From a virus, in IMG/VR virus record IMGVR_UViG_3300047462_000035: DNA of 45,785 nt. One strand, given 5' to 3'. Of this stretch, positions 3,814 through 45,785 are shown piece by piece (the first letter of the stretch is position 1; every line of letters begins with the position of its first letter). The notes under the pieces are model-generated. The model saw only the letters and a program-made list of their open reading frames with translations. It made no database searches and was not told the origin of the DNA. The translations under genes and the position numbers were made by a program.

Positions 3814-4824
3814 TTACCAAGTAAATTTAATCAGCCCTAAAGCACCATTTCCGCCCGCACCGCCATTTGCGCCGCCCCCTCCGCCGCCGCCTGGATGAGC
3901 GCCGACCCCTGCTTGTGCGAAAGTGCTAGGCGAAATTGACCCGCCGTAAGCAGCACCGCCAAAGCCGCCAAATCCGGCTGTTCCTCCAACTGAAGAGCCT
4001 GTTCCTGCACCGGCACTTGCCTGTAAGCTAAATTGACCACCAGAAACGACCGCTAAGGCACCGATAGTTGGTTCGAAGCCGCCATTAGCACCGTAGCCGC
4101 CGCCGCCGCCCCCCGCCGTCCATACGTTGCCGCCGCCAAAATTTATCGTCGTATCGCCGCCATTGCCCGCCTGCGTGCCAGTAGCACCGCCAGCCGCCCC
4201 GCCAAGGCCGACATGGTAGTTTATGACCTGTCCTGGCGTGACGCTCTGCCAGCCTTCTACGTAGCCGCCAGCCTGCCCGCCAGAACCGGCCGATGGATTG
4301 CCTGTTGTACTACCGCCGCCGCCGCCGCCGCCCCAGCCTTGGGCAAATATCGTGTAAATCCCGCTAGGGACAGTAAAACTACCATTGCCGCCAGCCGTCG
4401 CTGCAAAGCTTCCTGACCGTGCGAGTTTAACAGGTTGCCAGTTTCCATCCGTCAATGAAGGCGTGTCAGTATTTTCGCTAACCGTTGATGCGTATAAAAT
4501 AAATGGGGCTTCGCCAGAACTGCTATAGCGGACCATAGCGCCTATGCCATAAGAATAAGCCGTTCCTAGATTGTCGGTTGCGTCAATAAACTCAGGCGTG
4601 CCGTATTGCTGCAAATCTTGCAAAGCAAACGTTATGTCGTACATAACCGAATTAAACCGTAAACGGTCCATCGCCAATGCGGCCGGATCAGTCAATAAAT
4701 TAAGATTATAAGGTGGCGTCCACCCTTGCGGATAAGACACAATGCCGGACGTTTCAACCGTCATCGTAACTTGCGTTTGATCACCTTCGGCGGCAAACGG
4801 GCTGTAGAAATATCTCTGTTCCAT
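3814..4824 (-). CDS. Tail fibre / host-recognition protein with a glycine-rich C-terminal half
   Basis: 336 aa and the last gene of the tail module, after the baseplate J and DUF2612-like genes. The C-terminal ~200 aa are full of GGxGG and G6-7 runs, as in Gly-rich phage fibre domains. Confidence 0.7.
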   Translation of the reverse strand: MEQRYFYSPFAAEGDQTQVTMTVETSGIVSYPQGWTPPYNLNLLTDPAALAMDRLRFNSVMYDITFALQDLQQYGTPEFIDATDNLGTAYSYGIGAMVRYSSSGEAPFILYASTVSENTDTPSLTDGNWQPVKLARSGSFAATAGGNGSFTVPSGIYTIFAQGWGGGGGGGSTTGNPSAGSGGQAGGYVEGWQSVTPGQVINYHVGLGGAAGGATGTQAGNGGDTTINFGGGNVWTAGGGGGGYGANGGFEPTIGALAVVSGGQFSLQASAGAGTGSSVGGTAGFGGFGGAAYGGSISPSTFAQAGVGAHPGGGGGGGANGGAGGNGALGLIKFTW

Positions 4825-26343: not shown

Positions 26344-26934
26344 TTACAAAAACTCGATCACGGTTATATCAAGTGAGTTCAAATTATATTTAACATTCGT
26401 TTGTTGCTGTTGCAAGTCTATCCAATAGGTTGTCCCTACGGTAAATTGAATTGTAGACTTGAAAAATATTTGTTCGTTTACGTCGCCCACAGTTCCGCCA
26501 CCTATGGCTGTTGCAGCAATCCATGACGCTACCTGTCCAAAAACCGTTCCTCTAGCTGTAGCATTTACAGCGGGCGCGCTACCTGTTCCGTATGACCCTT
26601 GAACGCCTATGCCATAACCAGCGCCGGTTTGACCCGAATTATAAGCCTGCATTGTTATTAATACTAAAACTTTACCAGTTACTTTAGGTGTAAAAGGCAC
26701 AGCTAGACCGGCTTGAACAAAAGTATTAGCAGGAGTCGGGGCGGTAACAGTCGCGACATAATTTTGATAATATGCAAAAGACGGCAGTAAAGACGCATCG
26801 GCAACGCCAGAAGCATTTAAGCCAAAAATTTGTCCGGCATTTGCAATGCCAGAACTAACAAGCAAAGCTTTAAAACGGTTTGATATTCCGCTAACAATAT
26901 CAGTAAATGTCGAATTGCTTTGACCTAATGACAT
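26344..26934 (-). CDS. Short fibre-like protein, paralogue A
   Basis: 196 aa. The N-terminal 'GLNASGVADASLLP' matches the LDxxGKIPxxxLP-type motif of phage fibre proteins. About half its residues are identical to 26935..27519. Confidence 0.6.
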   Translation of the reverse strand: MSLGQSNSTFTDIVSGISNRFKALLVSSGIANAGQIFGLNASGVADASLLPSFAYYQNYVATVTAPTPANTFVQAGLAVPFTPKVTGKVLVLITMQAYNSGQTGAGYGIGVQGSYGTGSAPAVNATARGTVFGQVASWIAATAIGGGTVGDVNEQIFFKSTIQFTVGTTYWIDLQQQQTNVKYNLNSLDITVIEFL

Positions 26935-27519
26935 TTAAAAAAATTCTTGCAACGTAATGTCTAGTAAAGCAAGCGAACATTTGCTAACCGTATTTAGAGG
27001 GAATTGCTGCAAATCAAACCAATATAATTGTCCGACTGTCAGCACAACAGTAGACTTAAAAAATATTGGTTCATTAACGTCAGCAGCTACCACCGTAGTT
27101 GTAGCCTGCCAGCTTGCTTGCGAGCCAAAAGCTGTTCCCGTTGCCGCTACGTTGTTTGCTGGCGCGGTGCCTGTTCCGTATGACCCTTGAATGGTTATGC
27201 CGTTGCCAGCGGCAGTCGCATTAGAGTCTTTAATTTGCGCCTGGACCATAACTAAAACTTTACCAGTTACTTTAGGTGTAAAAGGCACAGCTAGACCGGC
27301 TTGCGTAAACGACGTAGAAGCTGGCGCGGTCACAGCCGCCGCGCTGCCTTGATACAAAGCACATGCAGGCATCATTGACGGATCAATAACGCCAGAAGCA
27401 TTCAAGCCGACAACTTGCCCAGCACTAGCCACGCCCAAACTCGCCGTCAGTGCTGTAAAACGTGTTCTAACTCCGTTGACTATATCAACAAAAGTTGAAC
27501 TGCTTTGGCCTAATGCCAC
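26935..27519 (-). CDS. Short fibre-like protein, paralogue B
   Basis: 194 aa with 'GLNASGVIDPSMMP'. Its stop abuts the start of paralogue A with no intervening base. It shares a perfect 53-bp block with A. Confidence 0.6.
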   Translation of the reverse strand: MALGQSSSTFVDIVNGVRTRFTALTASLGVASAGQVVGLNASGVIDPSMMPACALYQGSAAAVTAPASTSFTQAGLAVPFTPKVTGKVLVMVQAQIKDSNATAAGNGITIQGSYGTGTAPANNVAATGTAFGSQASWQATTTVVAADVNEPIFFKSTVVLTVGQLYWFDLQQFPLNTVSKCSLALLDITLQEFF

Positions 27520-29315: not shown

Positions 29316-29942
29316 TTATTGAAAAGCTAAAGCGTATTGCGGATTATTCGGCATTACTAAGTCAACGGCTTTTTGTAAAGCTTCGTCGGTCAGCTTTATG
29401 CCAGTAAACCCGGCCAAAAATTCAACGTGCGGTTTTGCATTCAAAACAAACTTTTCATACGAAATGACTGCGACTGGACATTCGCACAATTCGGCAAACT
29501 CGATAAGCTTATCTTGCTGGCGCGACGCATGACGCAAAGCATGTGTAGGATGCTTAAACGTCGCACCGTCGCTTTTTAATAATCGTGCTGCCACGGCCGC
29601 GTTGTCTCGCTGCATAATGACCATGCGCGGCTTACGAAAATGCGCGACGATTTCAGGCGGTTGCAAATGATTTTGAATGCCCGGAATTTTAAAACCCCAT
29701 TTTGCGAGGTTATCGTTTCTATAGGCAATAACCTTATATCGTGCCTCATGGTAGAAATGACGAAGCGCAAAGTTCATATCTGCGTCTTCATAAACAGGCG
29801 GTTCAACGCGGCCAAGGTTAAAACCTAAGCTATTCAATATAGCCGCTATCATTGAAGTACCGCAACGACCAATGCCGCTAATGATAAGCGTCATTTCTTC
29901 GGCAACCGGCTGACCGTTTAAAACTAAAGCACCTGAACTCAC
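29316..29942 (-). CDS. Sulfotransferase-like protein
   Basis: 208 aa. 'IISGIGRCGTSMI' resembles the 5'-phosphosulfate-binding loop (PKxGTT / GxxRSGTT), 'VIMQRDNAAVAARL' the 3'-phosphate-binding RDPxD..S region, and 'VISYEKF' the conserved YE[DK]L. The GTG start forms a GTGA overlap with the upstream stop. Confidence 0.55.
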   Translation of the reverse strand: MSSGALVLNGQPVAEEMTLIISGIGRCGTSMIAAILNSLGFNLGRVEPPVYEDADMNFALRHFYHEARYKVIAYRNDNLAKWGFKIPGIQNHLQPPEIVAHFRKPRMVIMQRDNAAVAARLLKSDGATFKHPTHALRHASRQQDKLIEFAELCECPVAVISYEKFVLNAKPHVEFLAGFTGIKLTDEALQKAVDLVMPNNPQYALAFQ

Positions 29943-30725: not shown

Positions 30726-31258
30726 TTGACTTGACCTTCTGACAATGGCAATAACGGAATGTTTATGGTTACAGGCTTAGACGTGAACTCGCGACCGCCA
30801 GCAAGCCAATCAATCCAGTTGCAATCTTCGTTTTGCGTTGTGACAATCTGCCACGGTCCTGGCGTCAAATCTTTTTCGCGTATCAAGCCGAGCGCGACAA
30901 TCTGACGGCCGATATAAGGCCACACAAAGTTTTGCGAATTGACCGGAATGACGAAAGGAACTGTGTGCGACGCATCAAGGTTATATTCTTGAAACATGAT
31001 GCGCGACGGTTTCACGTCGCAGAAATTTTTTCGCGTGCGGTCTATGATAAGCGTAACCCAGCCGTTGTGTAAAACTGGTTGAACAGAATTGACTACGACC
31101 GGCATACGATTTGCCAAAGCATTGGTTATCGCATTGTAGCCGAGACATAAAATAATCCCGCACAGAGTTAATACAATCAGCCTAGAAGATTCTATGAAAT
31201 GCCACGGCAACCACCGATGTTTGATTTGCATTAACCGATTGTATTGAAGCTTGCTCAT
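30722..31258 (-). CDS. Membrane-anchored lysis-cassette protein (spanin or holin-associated candidate)
   Basis: I prefer the ATG at 31258 ('MSKLQYN'), which forms an ATGA overlap with the upstream stop; the track starts at 31318. There is one N-terminal TM segment, 'LIVLTLCGIILCLGYNAI', followed by a ~130-aa domain. Confidence 0.45.
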   Translation of the reverse strand: MSKLQYNRLMQIKHRWLPWHFIESSRLIVLTLCGIILCLGYNAITNALANRMPVVVNSVQPVLHNGWVTLIIDRTRKNFCDVKPSRIMFQEYNLDASHTVPFVIPVNSQNFVWPYIGRQIVALGLIREKDLTPGPWQIVTTQNEDCNWIDWLAGGREFTSKPVTINIPLLPLSEGQVK

Positions 31259-31554
31259 TTGATATGTTGCCATATCTGAAGCGCCGCCCATGCGGCTAAG
31301 CCGGAACTGATTACCCATATTCCTTGCCCTATCACTTGTATAGCAATGTCTTTCAAGCTGTTACGCAAAACAGCTTCCTCTTGCTTTACCCTAAGCGAAT
31401 TTAAAAGAAAATTGTTCTTTATGTTAATCTGCCGGTGTTCAATGTCGCTATCGTCAATTCCAATGCTTTCAAATCGTTCCGTAACTACTTGCATGGAAAC
31501 GACCCGCGCGACTTGTTTTGCTATGTTTTCAATATCTTCGCGCGTCCATTCCAT
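31255..31554 (-). CDS. Small protein with a C-terminal TM segment (holin candidate)
   Basis: 99 aa with a hydrophobic 'IAIQVIGQGIWVISSGLAAWAALQIW' at the C-terminus. It is the first gene after the double terminator. Confidence 0.4.
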   Translation of the reverse strand: MEWTREDIENIAKQVARVVSMQVVTERFESIGIDDSDIEHRQINIKNNFLLNSLRVKQEEAVLRNSLKDIAIQVIGQGIWVISSGLAAWAALQIWQHIK

Positions 31555-31610
31555 ACGTTTAACCCCAGCTAGGAACCACTACAACTTAGAGTGTTTCTAA
31601 CATTATGCAA

Positions 31611-31639
31611 AATTAAAAAGACGCGGCCGAAGCCGCGCC
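31611..31639 (-). terminator. Rho-independent terminator (second of two after the pilin gene)
   Basis: On the minus strand: GGCGCGGC, loop UUCG, GCCGCGUC (one G-U pair), then TTTTTAATTTT. Confidence 0.7.
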
Positions 31640-31722
31640 AAGTACAGGGAGGAAACGTCCACGAAGCCGCGCCTACTAAGCGCAAGCCTTGTGTAATCAA
31701 ACGGCGGCGCGTTGTCCAACAA

Positions 31723-31751
31723 AAATCCCGTCGCAGGCTGCGACGGGATTT
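31723..31751 (-). terminator. Rho-independent terminator (first after the pilin gene)
   Basis: 12-bp arms AAATCCCGTCGC / GCGACGGGATTT, followed by TTTTTGTT on the minus strand. Confidence 0.7.
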
Positions 31752-31828
31752 AAGGAAGCTGTGAAGCTGTCTTACCACAGGGTAGCGGCAACCCAGCCTA
31801 GGCCGGGCTGACCGCGCCTGTCAAGCCG

Positions 31829-31990
31829 CTAGAGTTCCGATGCGACGTGACTGAAGGTGTTGCTTACGCCGTGGCCGAGCGAAGTCACAGCGCCGATGAT
31901 CACCACGGCGATAAGCGCCGCAATCAAAGCGTATTCAATCGCCGTCACAGCTTTGCGATTGTCAGAAAAACGCACAAAAAGTTTCGTCAT
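31829..31990 (-). CDS. flp: Flp/Fap-family (Tad type IVb) prepilin homologue
   Basis: Hand-translated 53-aa ORF, below the track's size cut-off: MTKLFVRFSDNRKAVTAIEYALIAALIAVVIIGAVTSLGHGVSNTFSHVASEL. An AGGAG RBS lies 9 nt upstream. It has the Flp motif 'TAIEYALIAALIAV', and its length and layout match Caulobacter PilA and Aggregatibacter Flp1. Confidence 0.85.
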   Translation of the reverse strand: MTKLFVRFSDNRKAVTAIEYALIAALIAVVIIGAVTSLGHGVSNTFSHVASEL

Positions 31991-32002
31991 TTTACTATGC
32001 TC

Positions 32003-32185
32003 CTATGTTATGCCGTTTTCACGGTCGATTGCGATTTCAACTTGTGTTTGCAATGCACGAAGCATTGGCAAACGTTCATGCGGCCTAGCGTCGCCAAGGC
32101 AACGCATGACCGAAAGATAGGCACGATACAACAAAGCCTGATGGTTAACTTCCGGCTTCGTCTGGTCAATCAAGTTTAAAACCAT
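32003..32185 (-). CDS. Hypothetical 60-aa protein upstream of flp
   Basis: Its stop lies 12 nt before the flp start. I recognised no motif. Confidence 0.45.
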   Translation of the reverse strand: MVLNLIDQTKPEVNHQALLYRAYLSVMRCLGDARPHERLPMLRALQTQVEIAIDRENGIT

Positions 32186-32220
32186 TCGCTTACCCTGTAG
32201 TTGTGAACAGCTAAACCGTA

Positions 32221-32547
32221 TCAGCTTTGCGTTATAGCGTCAACCTTTTTATTTGAAGTATTTGCTATAATGTGACCCGTATCGCGATAACCCCGCATGT
32301 ACCATATGGCCCGCGTCAGCCCGGCCACACAGCCTTCAATCTTAGCGCTATCTGCTATAAAGCCTTCCGGCTTACGATCCATTTGAAAAAACAACGTTGT
32401 CATTGTCACAAGAACGCTGCCAATTTGGTCAATAGCTAAAACAATATATTTTGACCGGTGTTCGTCTGGTATTTTTTCATAAGTTTCTGGCGGCTTGCTA
32501 GCGTCAGACAAAGCCTTCAGTTCGTCAGACGTAAAACTATTTGCCAT
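32221..32547 (-). CDS. Hypothetical protein
   Basis: 108-aa ORF that overlaps the VRR-NUC stop by 11 nt. Confidence 0.55.
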   Translation of the reverse strand: MANSFTSDELKALSDASKPPETYEKIPDEHRSKYIVLAIDQIGSVLVTMTTLFFQMDRKPEGFIADSAKIEGCVAGLTRAIWYMRGYRDTGHIIANTSNKKVDAITQS

Positions 32548-40621: not shown

Positions 40622-41251
40622 ATGGCTTGGTTTAATGCGACGGAACACAATCCAGAACTTCAGCAACAGGGAATGCCAGTTGGCAAATATCCTGTCAAAA
40701 TCATTGCTTCTGGCCCGCGTGCTTCAACAAATGACCCGGCAAGCGGTTTGTTGTTTTTGACGTGCGAAATTCTTGACGGCCCACAACGCGGCATGACGGG
40801 TCAGTTGACGTTAAACTTGTGGAACAAAAACGACACGTCAAAGGAAATCGCAGGCCGTCAGCTTTCGGCTATTTGCCACGTTACACAGACGTTGCACCTT
40901 GACGCCAAGCCTGAAGGCGTTGAACTTTGGGGCAAGCCGTTTATTCTCGAAATGGCGCAACAGCCTGATTCAAAATATACGCAAATTGCAGGCGTTTACG
41001 ACGTAGCTGGCGCACCGCCAACGCGCGCCGCATCTGCATTGGCCGCGTCAGCCACACAGCCGCCCCAGCAGTTTGCCCAAACACAAGCGCCAGCAACCCA
41101 GCCGCAAGGCGGCGGTGCGCCGTCATGGGCTGGCGGTGCGCCACAGGCGACACAGCAACCGGCGTTTGGCGGTCAACCGCCCGCTGGCGGCACACCTTCG
41201 TGGGCGCAACAGCCTGCAACAAATAATGCGCCGTCATGGGCGCGGCAATAA
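40622..41251 (+). CDS. SSB-like protein (DUF669-like) with a PSWA-repeat tail
   Basis: 209 aa directly after the Sak4-like gene. An OB-size N-domain is followed by a Gln/Pro/Ala tail with three 'PSWA' motifs. Confidence 0.55.
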   Translation: MAWFNATEHNPELQQQGMPVGKYPVKIIASGPRASTNDPASGLLFLTCEILDGPQRGMTGQLTLNLWNKNDTSKEIAGRQLSAICHVTQTLHLDAKPEGVELWGKPFILEMAQQPDSKYTQIAGVYDVAGAPPTRAASALAASATQPPQQFAQTQAPATQPQGGGAPSWAGGAPQATQQPAFGGQPPAGGTPSWAQQPATNNAPSWARQ

Positions 41252-45322: not shown

Positions 45323-45762
45323 AAGGATTAAAAGTTATGAGCGCAAAACTTACGCCTACAAATTTTCCTGTGATTGTGGGGGAAACTGTTTTATTTGGCA
45401 ATTCAAGCAGAACAGCAATTAAACTTGGTCTTGCAACGCTTACGCATGTTGCACATGCTCGCGCTGTATCTGCCGGATGGTGGTCAGACAAAAGCACAGG
45501 CAAACCGCTTGAACGCAATAAAGGCGAATTGCTAATGCTTATGGTTTCAGAACTTTCTGAAGGTTTTGAAGGCTTGCGAAAAAATCTCATGGACGATAAG
45601 CTTACAAATCGGCCCATGATTGAAGTTGAGTTTGCAGATTGTCTTATTCGTATGTGCGATTTTGCAGGCAGATATGGCTTAGATATTGGCGGTGCAGCTT
45701 GTGATAAAATTGATTTTAACGAAATTCGAACGGATCACAAATTAGAAAATCGAAACAAATAA
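45319..45762 (+). CDS. MazG-like nucleotide pyrophosphohydrolase
   Basis: 147 aa. 'MVSELSEGFEGLRK' (ExxE) and 'EVEFADCLIRMCD' (E..D) are typical of the MazG helical bundle. Confidence 0.65.
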   Translation: MKGLKVMSAKLTPTNFPVIVGETVLFGNSSRTAIKLGLATLTHVAHARAVSAGWWSDKSTGKPLERNKGELLMLMVSELSEGFEGLRKNLMDDKLTNRPMIEVEFADCLIRMCDFAGRYGLDIGGAACDKIDFNEIRTDHKLENRNK

Positions 45763-45785
45763 GGCGGAAAAGAGTTCTAACCAAA
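45659..45785. repeat. Terminal direct repeat copy 2 (identical to 1..127)
   Basis: See copy 1. Confidence 0.9.

Follow-up and report, generated by a model that had tools for sequence, protein, structure and literature searches.

Phage-encoded pilins have been shown to act as anti-phage devices only very recently, and only for type IVa pili. A prophage FimU is built into type IVa pili and blocks phages that bind the pilus tip (Sztanko et al., Cell Rep 2026, PMC12952977). The same study described PilA-like genes, including truncated forms of 60 residues, in phages of several unrelated types, some of them virulent. P-FimU (from F10-like Pseudomonas prophages) and P-PilA (from Xylella prophages and virulent Pseudomonas phages) are pilus subunit homologues that come without the pilus machinery; they have been shown or proposed to enter the pilus and block phages that bind it (PMC12952977). 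Here we describe a gene for a prepilin of the Flp/Fap family in the viral DNA of IMG/VR record IMGVR_UViG_3300047462_000035, whose full stretch of 45,785 nucleotides is referred to below as the window. The gene lies on the minus strand (31829..31990, stop codon included) and encodes 53 amino acids. Like P-FimU and P-PilA, its product is a subunit homologue without machinery, it occurs in several unrelated types of phage including non-temperate ones, and it resembles in size and form those members that are helix-only pilins of about 60 residues. The two cases differ in pilus class: P-FimU and P-PilA belong to type IVa (Pil) systems, whereas the present gene encodes an Flp major pilin of the type IVc (Tad) class, which is not covered in PMC12952977. 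Moreover, function has been demonstrated for the minor pilin FimU from prophages only (PMC12952977), and that of the phage Flp is predicted. Other phage proteins disable type IV pili through the machinery, such as Aqs1, which binds PilB, and Zip, which acts via PilZ; they are not pilins and inhibit the ATPase or its chaperone, unlike the structural subunit homologue described here.

Tad pili are widespread adhesion organelles and known phage receptors. The Tad pilus of Caulobacter crescentus, built of PilA (8U1K/8U2B), is an established phage receptor (PMC11067988). In this pilus the subunit has its N-terminus buried and its C-terminal end facing outward, and PhiCb5 contacts prepilin residues 43, 48, and 51 together with the C-terminus (PMC11067988). 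The pilin of the non-host strain NA1000 carries four substitutions, including the contact residues N43R and T51A, and PhiCb5 is not adsorbed (PMC11067988).

The open reading frame (ORF) that encodes the phage pilin exists and reads as quoted in a preliminary description of this DNA, which had been made from the letters alone. Its translation is MTKLFVRFSDNRKAVTAIEYALIAALIAVVIIGAVTSLGHGVSNTFSHVASEL, which divides into leader and mature protein as MTKLFVRFSDNRKA↓VTAIEYALIAALIAVVIIGAVTSLGHGVSNTFSHVASEL (the arrow marks the predicted cut). The Pfam profile Flp_Fap (PF04964) matched the prepilin with 59.1 bits (E=3.7e-16) over profile positions 1-44 of 46. Because this score exceeds the gathering cut-off of the profile (32.2 bits), we do not regard the frame as a chance ORF. 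NCBIfam returned no match for the pilin or the neighbouring ORFs, and the pilin had no match among the PHROG families. The layout is that of the family, in which a prepilin has about 50 to 80 residues, a charged leader, and a roughly 20-residue hydrophobic Flp motif. In the 53-residue phage protein, a charged leader (MTKLFVRFSDNRKA, amino acids 1-14, codons 31949..31990, minus strand, predicted cut after Ala14) is followed by the hydrophobic Flp motif VTAIEYALIAALIAVVIIGAV. The mature pilin of 39 residues (31832..31948, minus strand), VTAIEY...ASEL, begins V1-T2-A3-I4-E5-Y6, and the columns of the conserved Glu at +5 and Tyr at +6 were invariant in both of our alignments (A1 and A2).

The resemblance to Caulobacter PilA that had been suggested from the layout was borne out. 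The phage pilin matched 8U1K with E=6.5e-6 (8U1K and 8U2B both at E ~1e-5), and the alignment to mature PilA begins at residue 16, one residue past the predicted cut. Both proteins are single-helix Flp pilins with a 14-residue leader and the motif TAIEY; PilA differs in having Gly at -1, Ala at +1, a mature protein of 45 residues with a longer C-terminal tail, and a chromosomal cpa locus. The AlphaFold2 model of the phage protein is a single helix over residues 3-52 (predicted local distance difference test score, 85.7). Foldseek searches of the PDB and BFVD with this model gave no matches, an expected and uninformative outcome with a lone helix. Together, these results identify the product almost certainly as an Flp-family prepilin.

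We compared the phage protein with the Flp proteins of candidate hosts, as the preliminary description had proposed, and found Acetobacteraceae relatives with complete tad loci. The chromosomal Flp proteins of Acidocella and bog Acetobacteraceae (Acidocella sp., OZ255623, locus L019; 'bog_937', PLSD01000030, locus L016; and A. aquatica, locus L021) fall into the same Pfam family and have the same mature length of 39 residues. They share 34 of 39 mature residues with the phage pilin, including Glu5 and Tyr6, and have Ala at -1 and Val at +1 after basic residues. The phage copy differs from them in being an orphan gene with a 14-residue, AT-rich leader and a DNA identity of 67-79%, and in carrying His at mature positions 26 and 34, which is uncommon in host copies. 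The most likely host, judged from these relatives, is an Acidocella-like member of the Acetobacteraceae.

The residue at -1 of the phage cleavage site (RKA↓VTAIEY) is indeed Ala and not Gly, as had been pointed out earlier. However, the reading of this residue as an anomaly did not survive the comparison. Among the 120 best matches from 5.8 billion proteins, 114 have A↓VTAIEY, and all chromosomal Flp genes of Acidocella and other Acetobacteraceae in a scan of one genome per species follow the pattern [KR][RK]A↓V; Caulobacterales, Rhizobiales, Burkholderiales, and other taxa mostly have ESG↓A. On the Acidocella chromosome of locus L019, the Ala-type flp gene is followed by genes for a Peptidase_A24 protein, RcpC/CpaB, a secretin, a CpaE-like ATPase, a T2SSE ATPase, and two T2SSF proteins, and a tad operon likewise lies directly 3' of an Ala-type flp in loci L016, L020, L021, L036, and L125. 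Prepilin peptidases are reported to accept either Gly or Ala at the cut (PMC3244431). The phage site RKA↓V fits the rule of its clade, and the phage pilin retains Glu5, Tyr6, and the hydrophobic core. The Ala at -1 is thus read here as a variant of the clade and not as a defect, with predicted cleavage after Ala14. This corrects a tempting misreading, since in the Acetobacteraceae the Ala is lineage-wide and coupled to basic residues at -2 and -3.

The cleavage site also covaries across the Flp family as a whole (loci L014-L093; proteins P0001-P0120): sites of the Ala type nearly always read [KR][RK]A↓V, and those of the Gly type are mostly E-S-G↓A. As these residues covary, CpaA of the Acetobacteraceae clade may have a shifted specificity.

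The Ala had previously led to the idea of a poison pilin, that is, a dominant-negative subunit, poorly processed or unable to assemble, that jams the peptidase or the Tad platform, so that pili are lost and pilus-dependent phages are blocked. Because Ala is the rule in this clade and stands beside an A24 peptidase gene that looks functional in the host loci, this idea has lost its only basis in the sequence. Glu5, Tyr6, and the entire hydrophobic core are also identical to those of host pilins, and the purifying selection described below spans the whole mature sequence including the exposed C-terminus, which a mere blocker would not need. On the other hand, excess pilin of any kind might in principle tie up the peptidase or the platform, inhibition of assembly has been considered for the truncated phage PilA as well (Sztanko et al., PMC12952977), and the leaders are of 11-14 residues in three phage lineages compared to 18-24 in the chromosomal Acetobacteraceae pilins. 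Weighing these points, we consider a poison pilin quite improbable.

In our view the main interest of the gene is not its cleavage site but the recurrence of Flp in unrelated phages. Seven contigs from several samples encode an identical pilin protein in one and the same context. A relative of 45.2 kb (L005), with 41 ORFs in common with the window, carries a pilin of 87% identity at the same position. Ala-type Flp genes were also found in three viral loci that have essentially nothing else in common with the window or with each other. The first (L006) encodes a 1335-residue tail protein and a GH108 endolysin; the second (L007, an IMG/VR UViG) encodes DNA polymerase A, a UvrD helicase, and UDG; and the third (L009, also an IMG/VR UViG) encodes a phrog_17 DNA polymerase and a glucosyltransferase. 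By gene content, Ala-type Flp is thus present in at least four unrelated viral contexts (the window with L005, L006, L007, and L009). Locus L124, with thymidine kinase, dNMP phosphatases, and a helicase, is probably a fifth. A tblastn search with seven Acidocella Tad proteins detected no tad genes, either in the window or in any viral locus, and no other pilin-like or Tad gene was found in the window. Going by this gene content, the pilin would depend wholly on the Tad machinery of the host for its function.

Orphan Flp genes are not confined to the Ala type. A profile scan found them, mostly of the Gly type and with no tad genes within 6 kb, in 30 IMG/VR contigs (L096-L123), a count that is a lower bound and includes provirus calls as listed in IMG/VR. 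About 10 of these contigs, of 48-55 kb (e.g., L099, L103-L108, L110, and L111), share one pilin type, MKKLFSK[LV]ARDESG↓ATAIEYGLIAAL[IV]SVALI. Several of the orphan-Flp contigs are provirus calls from isolate genomes. We found no description of a phage-encoded Flp/Tad pilin in the literature searched, and a tblastn search of 50,697 GenBank phage records with the pilin gave no match, a result that the low-complexity filter may weaken. These searches and that of PHROG agree with the earlier remark that no phage Flp pilin has been characterised.

We then measured selection on the mature part of the pilin. Compared with the other phage copies, the ratio of nonsynonymous to synonymous substitution rates (dN/dS) was 0.03-0.12, at near-saturated dS values of 0.7-2.9, which indicates strong purifying selection on the mature pilin in the phage lineages. 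Pairs with the close variants L002 and L004 were rejected for this measurement. In these variants (31255-32185), the block orf60-flp-orf99 is 96-99% identical, with one difference in flp, compared to 84.7% for orf108 and about 75% for orf161; neighbours that are 15-25% diverged beside such a block point to recombination. Since close pairs tell little about selection, the distant phage copies were used instead.

Differences between the phage and host copies are confined to mature positions 19-38 and concentrate at 26-36. His26 (window positions about 31871-31873) was present in all seven phage copies, which represent four of four independent lineages, compared to 1 of 14 chromosomal and 11 of 108 metagenomic copies. 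His34 (about 31847-31849) was present in five of the seven phage copies and in none of the 14 chromosomal ones. His26 was tried as a marker of a phage-only clade and rejected, as P0108, which has His26 and Ala at -1, is encoded in a full chromosomal tad operon; it is an enrichment only. Because the phage leader, like that of Caulobacter PilA, has 14 residues, the positions contacted by PhiCb5 correspond to the variable stretch of the phage pilin.

These observations suggest how the protein may act. The prepilin would be made with the early or middle genes, inserted into the inner membrane, and cut by the CpaA/TadV peptidase of the host. It would then join the pilin pool, and the host Tad machine would polymerise it alongside or instead of the host pilin. 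In this respect the reading favoured here agrees with the second hypothesis of the preliminary description, in which the pilin becomes part of the pilus. As all differences from the host copies lie in the outward-facing C-terminal third, the surface of the pilus would be altered without disabling the pilus. The likeliest payoff would be an altered receptor, leading to superinfection exclusion or to the protection of progeny against phages that use the Tad pilus, possibly including this phage itself. We therefore favour, with a probability of roughly 0.4, the reading that the gene encodes a functional replacement pilin, which changes the Tad pilus in its role as a phage receptor, a reading suggested by the sequence comparisons and by analogy with P-FimU.

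Several observations weigh against it. In sequence, the phage pilin falls inside the natural variation of host pilins, His26 occurs on chromosomes too, and there is no clear signature of "escape." That this or other phages of these bacteria use the Tad pilus as a receptor is a supposition. The host is deduced from the relatives of the pilin alone, and the phage has 46% GC compared to 58-64% in the candidate hosts. The dN/dS values rest on 39 codons with saturated dS. Finally, dS in the flp region is 0.025 between the close variants, compared to about 0.8 in the neighbours; because flp is near-identical there while its neighbours have diverged, this reflects a recent exchange of the flp block by recombination, not selection as such.

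If a replacement pilin of this kind is made, it would be the first replacement of the major subunit in a type IVc (Tad) pilus, and it would extend the principle found in 2026 for the phage FimU to another class of pilus and to lytic infection. The presence of a selected Flp in several unrelated phages suggests the same strategy on Tad pili during lytic infection. A wider proposal is that phages of Tad-piliated Alphaproteobacteria have in Flp major-pilin genes, which they exchange or have captured repeatedly, a recurrent weapon, in which the early pilin of a virulent phage, built in by the peptidase and Tad machine of the host, would re-surface the pilus against competing or sibling phages. We offer this wider proposal tentatively, as one that may well prove wrong. 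If confirmed, a single helix of 39 residues would be a simple handle on how the surface of the pilus governs phage adsorption, and orphan flp genes would mark pilus-centred competition among phages in soils and peat.

The pilin could serve adhesion instead. It might keep or boost Tad pili during the shut-down of the host, so that infected cells stay attached in the biofilm or to peat particles and new phages emerge where hosts are dense; for temperate relatives the corresponding role would be lysogenic conversion of adhesion. The protein looks fully functional and host-like, its gene stands at the end of the early array, and Tad pili are adhesion organelles (PMC11067988). The roughly 10 orphan-Flp contigs of 48-55 kb, several of them provirus calls, are a setting in which conversion would make sense. 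However, no lysogeny genes were found in the present phage, the pilin is one of more than 10 components needed and the phage lacks the others, the benefit to a lytic phage is speculative, and the documented precedents for phage pilins concern defence against other phages. We regard an adhesion role as unlikely on balance.

The composition of the gene bears on its origin. GC content is 52.5% for the whole gene, 57.5% for the mature part, and 38% for the leader, against a genome mean of 46.1%, and the mature codons have a GC content at third positions of 0.72. The peak 200-nucleotide window at the pilin locus has 62% GC (z=2.5, top 3% of windows). The GC-rich segment noted in the preliminary description is therefore real and host-like, but it is modest and is not the GC maximum of the genome. 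The most GC-rich stretches, richer than the flp locus, lie at about 3850-4250 and 40975-41250 (63-70% in windows of 200-400 nucleotides), one inside a Gly-rich ORF of 336 residues (3814-4824) and the other near the end of an ORF at 40622-41251.

DNA similarity between the phage gene and chromosomal Acetobacteraceae flp is limited to the codons of the mature pilin, to which the identity of 67-79% applies, and the best match is a metagenome-assembled genome of a bog member of the Acetobacteraceae. The leader has no DNA similarity to host genes and is shorter than the chromosomal leaders. Because only the mature codons resemble host DNA and the leader is unrelated, the gene appears to be an old, reshaped acquisition and not a fresh capture. 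It is best explained, from these comparisons, as a host-derived but long-resident gene for the Flp major pilin of a Tad (type IVc) pilus.

The same data speak to the notion of a neutral passenger, that is, recently captured host DNA with no function for the phage. The host-like composition with its GC bump and the orphan state of the gene, without any partner genes, would fit such a passenger. Against this, the identity to any host gene found is only 67-79% at the nucleotide level, the leader, now at 38% GC, has been replaced or ameliorated, and the dN/dS of 0.03-0.12 holds across the phage lineages. Furthermore, the gene has been kept in L005 at a dS of about 1 and occurs in at least four unrelated lineages, and its ribosome-binding site (RBS) and terminators are conserved. 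A neutral passenger is hardly credible in our opinion.

We also examined the expression signals around the gene. As reported before, it has its own RBS, AGGAG (32000..32004, minus strand), 9 nucleotides before the ATG and overlapping the TAG stop codon of a 60-codon ORF upstream. Just past the pilin stop codon, minimum free energy (MFE) folding places a GC-rich hairpin without a T tract (31789..31810, minus strand), which is kept in L002 and L005 with covarying stem positions. Farther downstream are two intrinsic terminators on the same strand. The first, AAATCCCGTCGCA-GCC-TGCGACGGGATTTTTGTT (31718..31751), was missed by a simple scan and formed in the MFE fold, and its stem is kept in L002 and L005 by compensatory changes. 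The second, GGCGCGGC-TTCG-GCCGCGTC plus TTTTTAATTTT (31609..31639), has a stem of 8 pairs (7 G-C), was detected both by the terminator scan and in the MFE fold, and is nearly invariant across the three phages. The 236-nucleotide downstream region as a whole folds with z=-4.4 compared to shuffled sequences (MFE). The two terminators announced earlier are therefore present and kept in related phages. Directly after terminator 2 lies GCATAATGTTAGAAACACTCTAAGTTG (31582-31608, minus strand), which is almost invariant in three phages that otherwise differ in the intergenic region; this conservation makes it a candidate late promoter or regulatory site.

The pilin gene closes a leftward array of small, tightly packed genes of the early or replication side, which follows the primase and helicase genes. 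Beyond the terminators the late region starts, its first block running on to the genes for the terminase, portal, and capsid, and the predicted terminators would insulate the pilin gene from these late genes. Within that block, an ORF of 162 residues matched only phrog_3108, a family of unknown function, and ORFs of 99 and 198 residues matched nothing. The preliminary placement of the pilin between the early genes and a lysis cassette thus holds for its position at the end of the early genes, but family matches could not confirm a lysis cassette next to it. A role in the membrane apart from any pilus, as a small helical peptide that acts like a holin or antiholin to time lysis together with the downstream late or lysis genes, might be suggested by this neighbourhood, as a hydrophobic helix of 39 residues is encoded directly upstream of a block that starts with the 99-residue ORF and the 162-residue phrog_3108 protein. 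But the two terminators separate the pilin gene from the late block, the neighbourhoods in L006, L007, L009, and L124 are quite different, the prepilin cleavage motif is conserved, and 34-37 of the 39 mature residues are identical to those of host pilins. Such a role is very improbable.

The ORF upstream of the pilin gene encodes 60 amino acids (32003..32185, minus strand) and ends 12 nucleotides before it. It had no Pfam, PHROG, or NCBIfam match, and its only relatives among 5.8 billion proteins were three, all from this phage family. Its dN/dS of 0.08 compared to L005 argues that it is a real gene. A consensus scan of the minus strand at 32000-32300 found no sigma-70-like site, although a non-canonical promoter is possible. 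From the arrangement of the two frames, the 60-residue ORF and the pilin gene probably share a transcript and are coupled in translation. Because the upstream frame is an ORFan of the phage family and is absent beside Flp in the other phages, we regard it as a neighbour and not as part of a pilin unit or a Tad component. Hence the suggestion that the two belong to the same unit stands as far as probable co-transcription is concerned and falls as regards membership of a pilin unit.

The window itself covers a complete phage genome of 45,658 bp. Bases 1-127 are repeated exactly at 45659-45785 (127 bp), and this terminal repeat is the assembly overlap expected of a circular or terminally redundant genome. 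Encoded structural and packaging proteins include a terminase, portal, major capsid protein, tail sheath, and tape measure, and the replication genes encode a primase-polymerase, a DUF3987 helicase, a second helicase, a DNA polymerase, and a sliding clamp. Among cultured phages, the capsid protein has relatives in PB1-like myoviruses that infect Burkholderia and Pseudomonas (50-54% identity), and the DNA polymerase resembles one from a Variovorax phage (53% identity). Naming the host through these cultured relatives was considered and rejected, as both proteins are too distant from them. Megablast of 15 kb of the window against the 50,697 GenBank phage records gave no match, so there is no close cultured phage among them. 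In 20 ORFs scanned with Pfam, which included all large unassigned ORFs, no integrase, recombinase, repressor, or helix-turn-helix match was found, and on this ground the phage is probably virulent. By its gene content, it is an uncultured, PB1-like myovirus. The label of "moron" previously given to the pilin gene fits poorly with this picture: the gene has its own terminators, but it lacks a consensus promoter of its own, and the phage has no detected lysogeny genes and has its own replication genes.

Two further features of the window were recorded. At 29316-29942 (minus strand) lies a gene for a 208-residue sulfotransferase-family protein with a GxxRxGTS P-loop (Pfam Sulfotransfer_3, 28.4 bits, cut-off 27). 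A protein of this family is also encoded by the unrelated Flp-carrying L009 (13500-14111, plus strand; 33% identity, E=9e-30), so that two unrelated phages each have a pilin together with a putative surface-modifying enzyme. Finally, at 26344-27519 (minus strand), two adjacent paralogous ORFs of 196 and 194 residues derive from a tandem duplication, the duplicated segments (26663-26933 and 27251-27518) being 70-85% identical.

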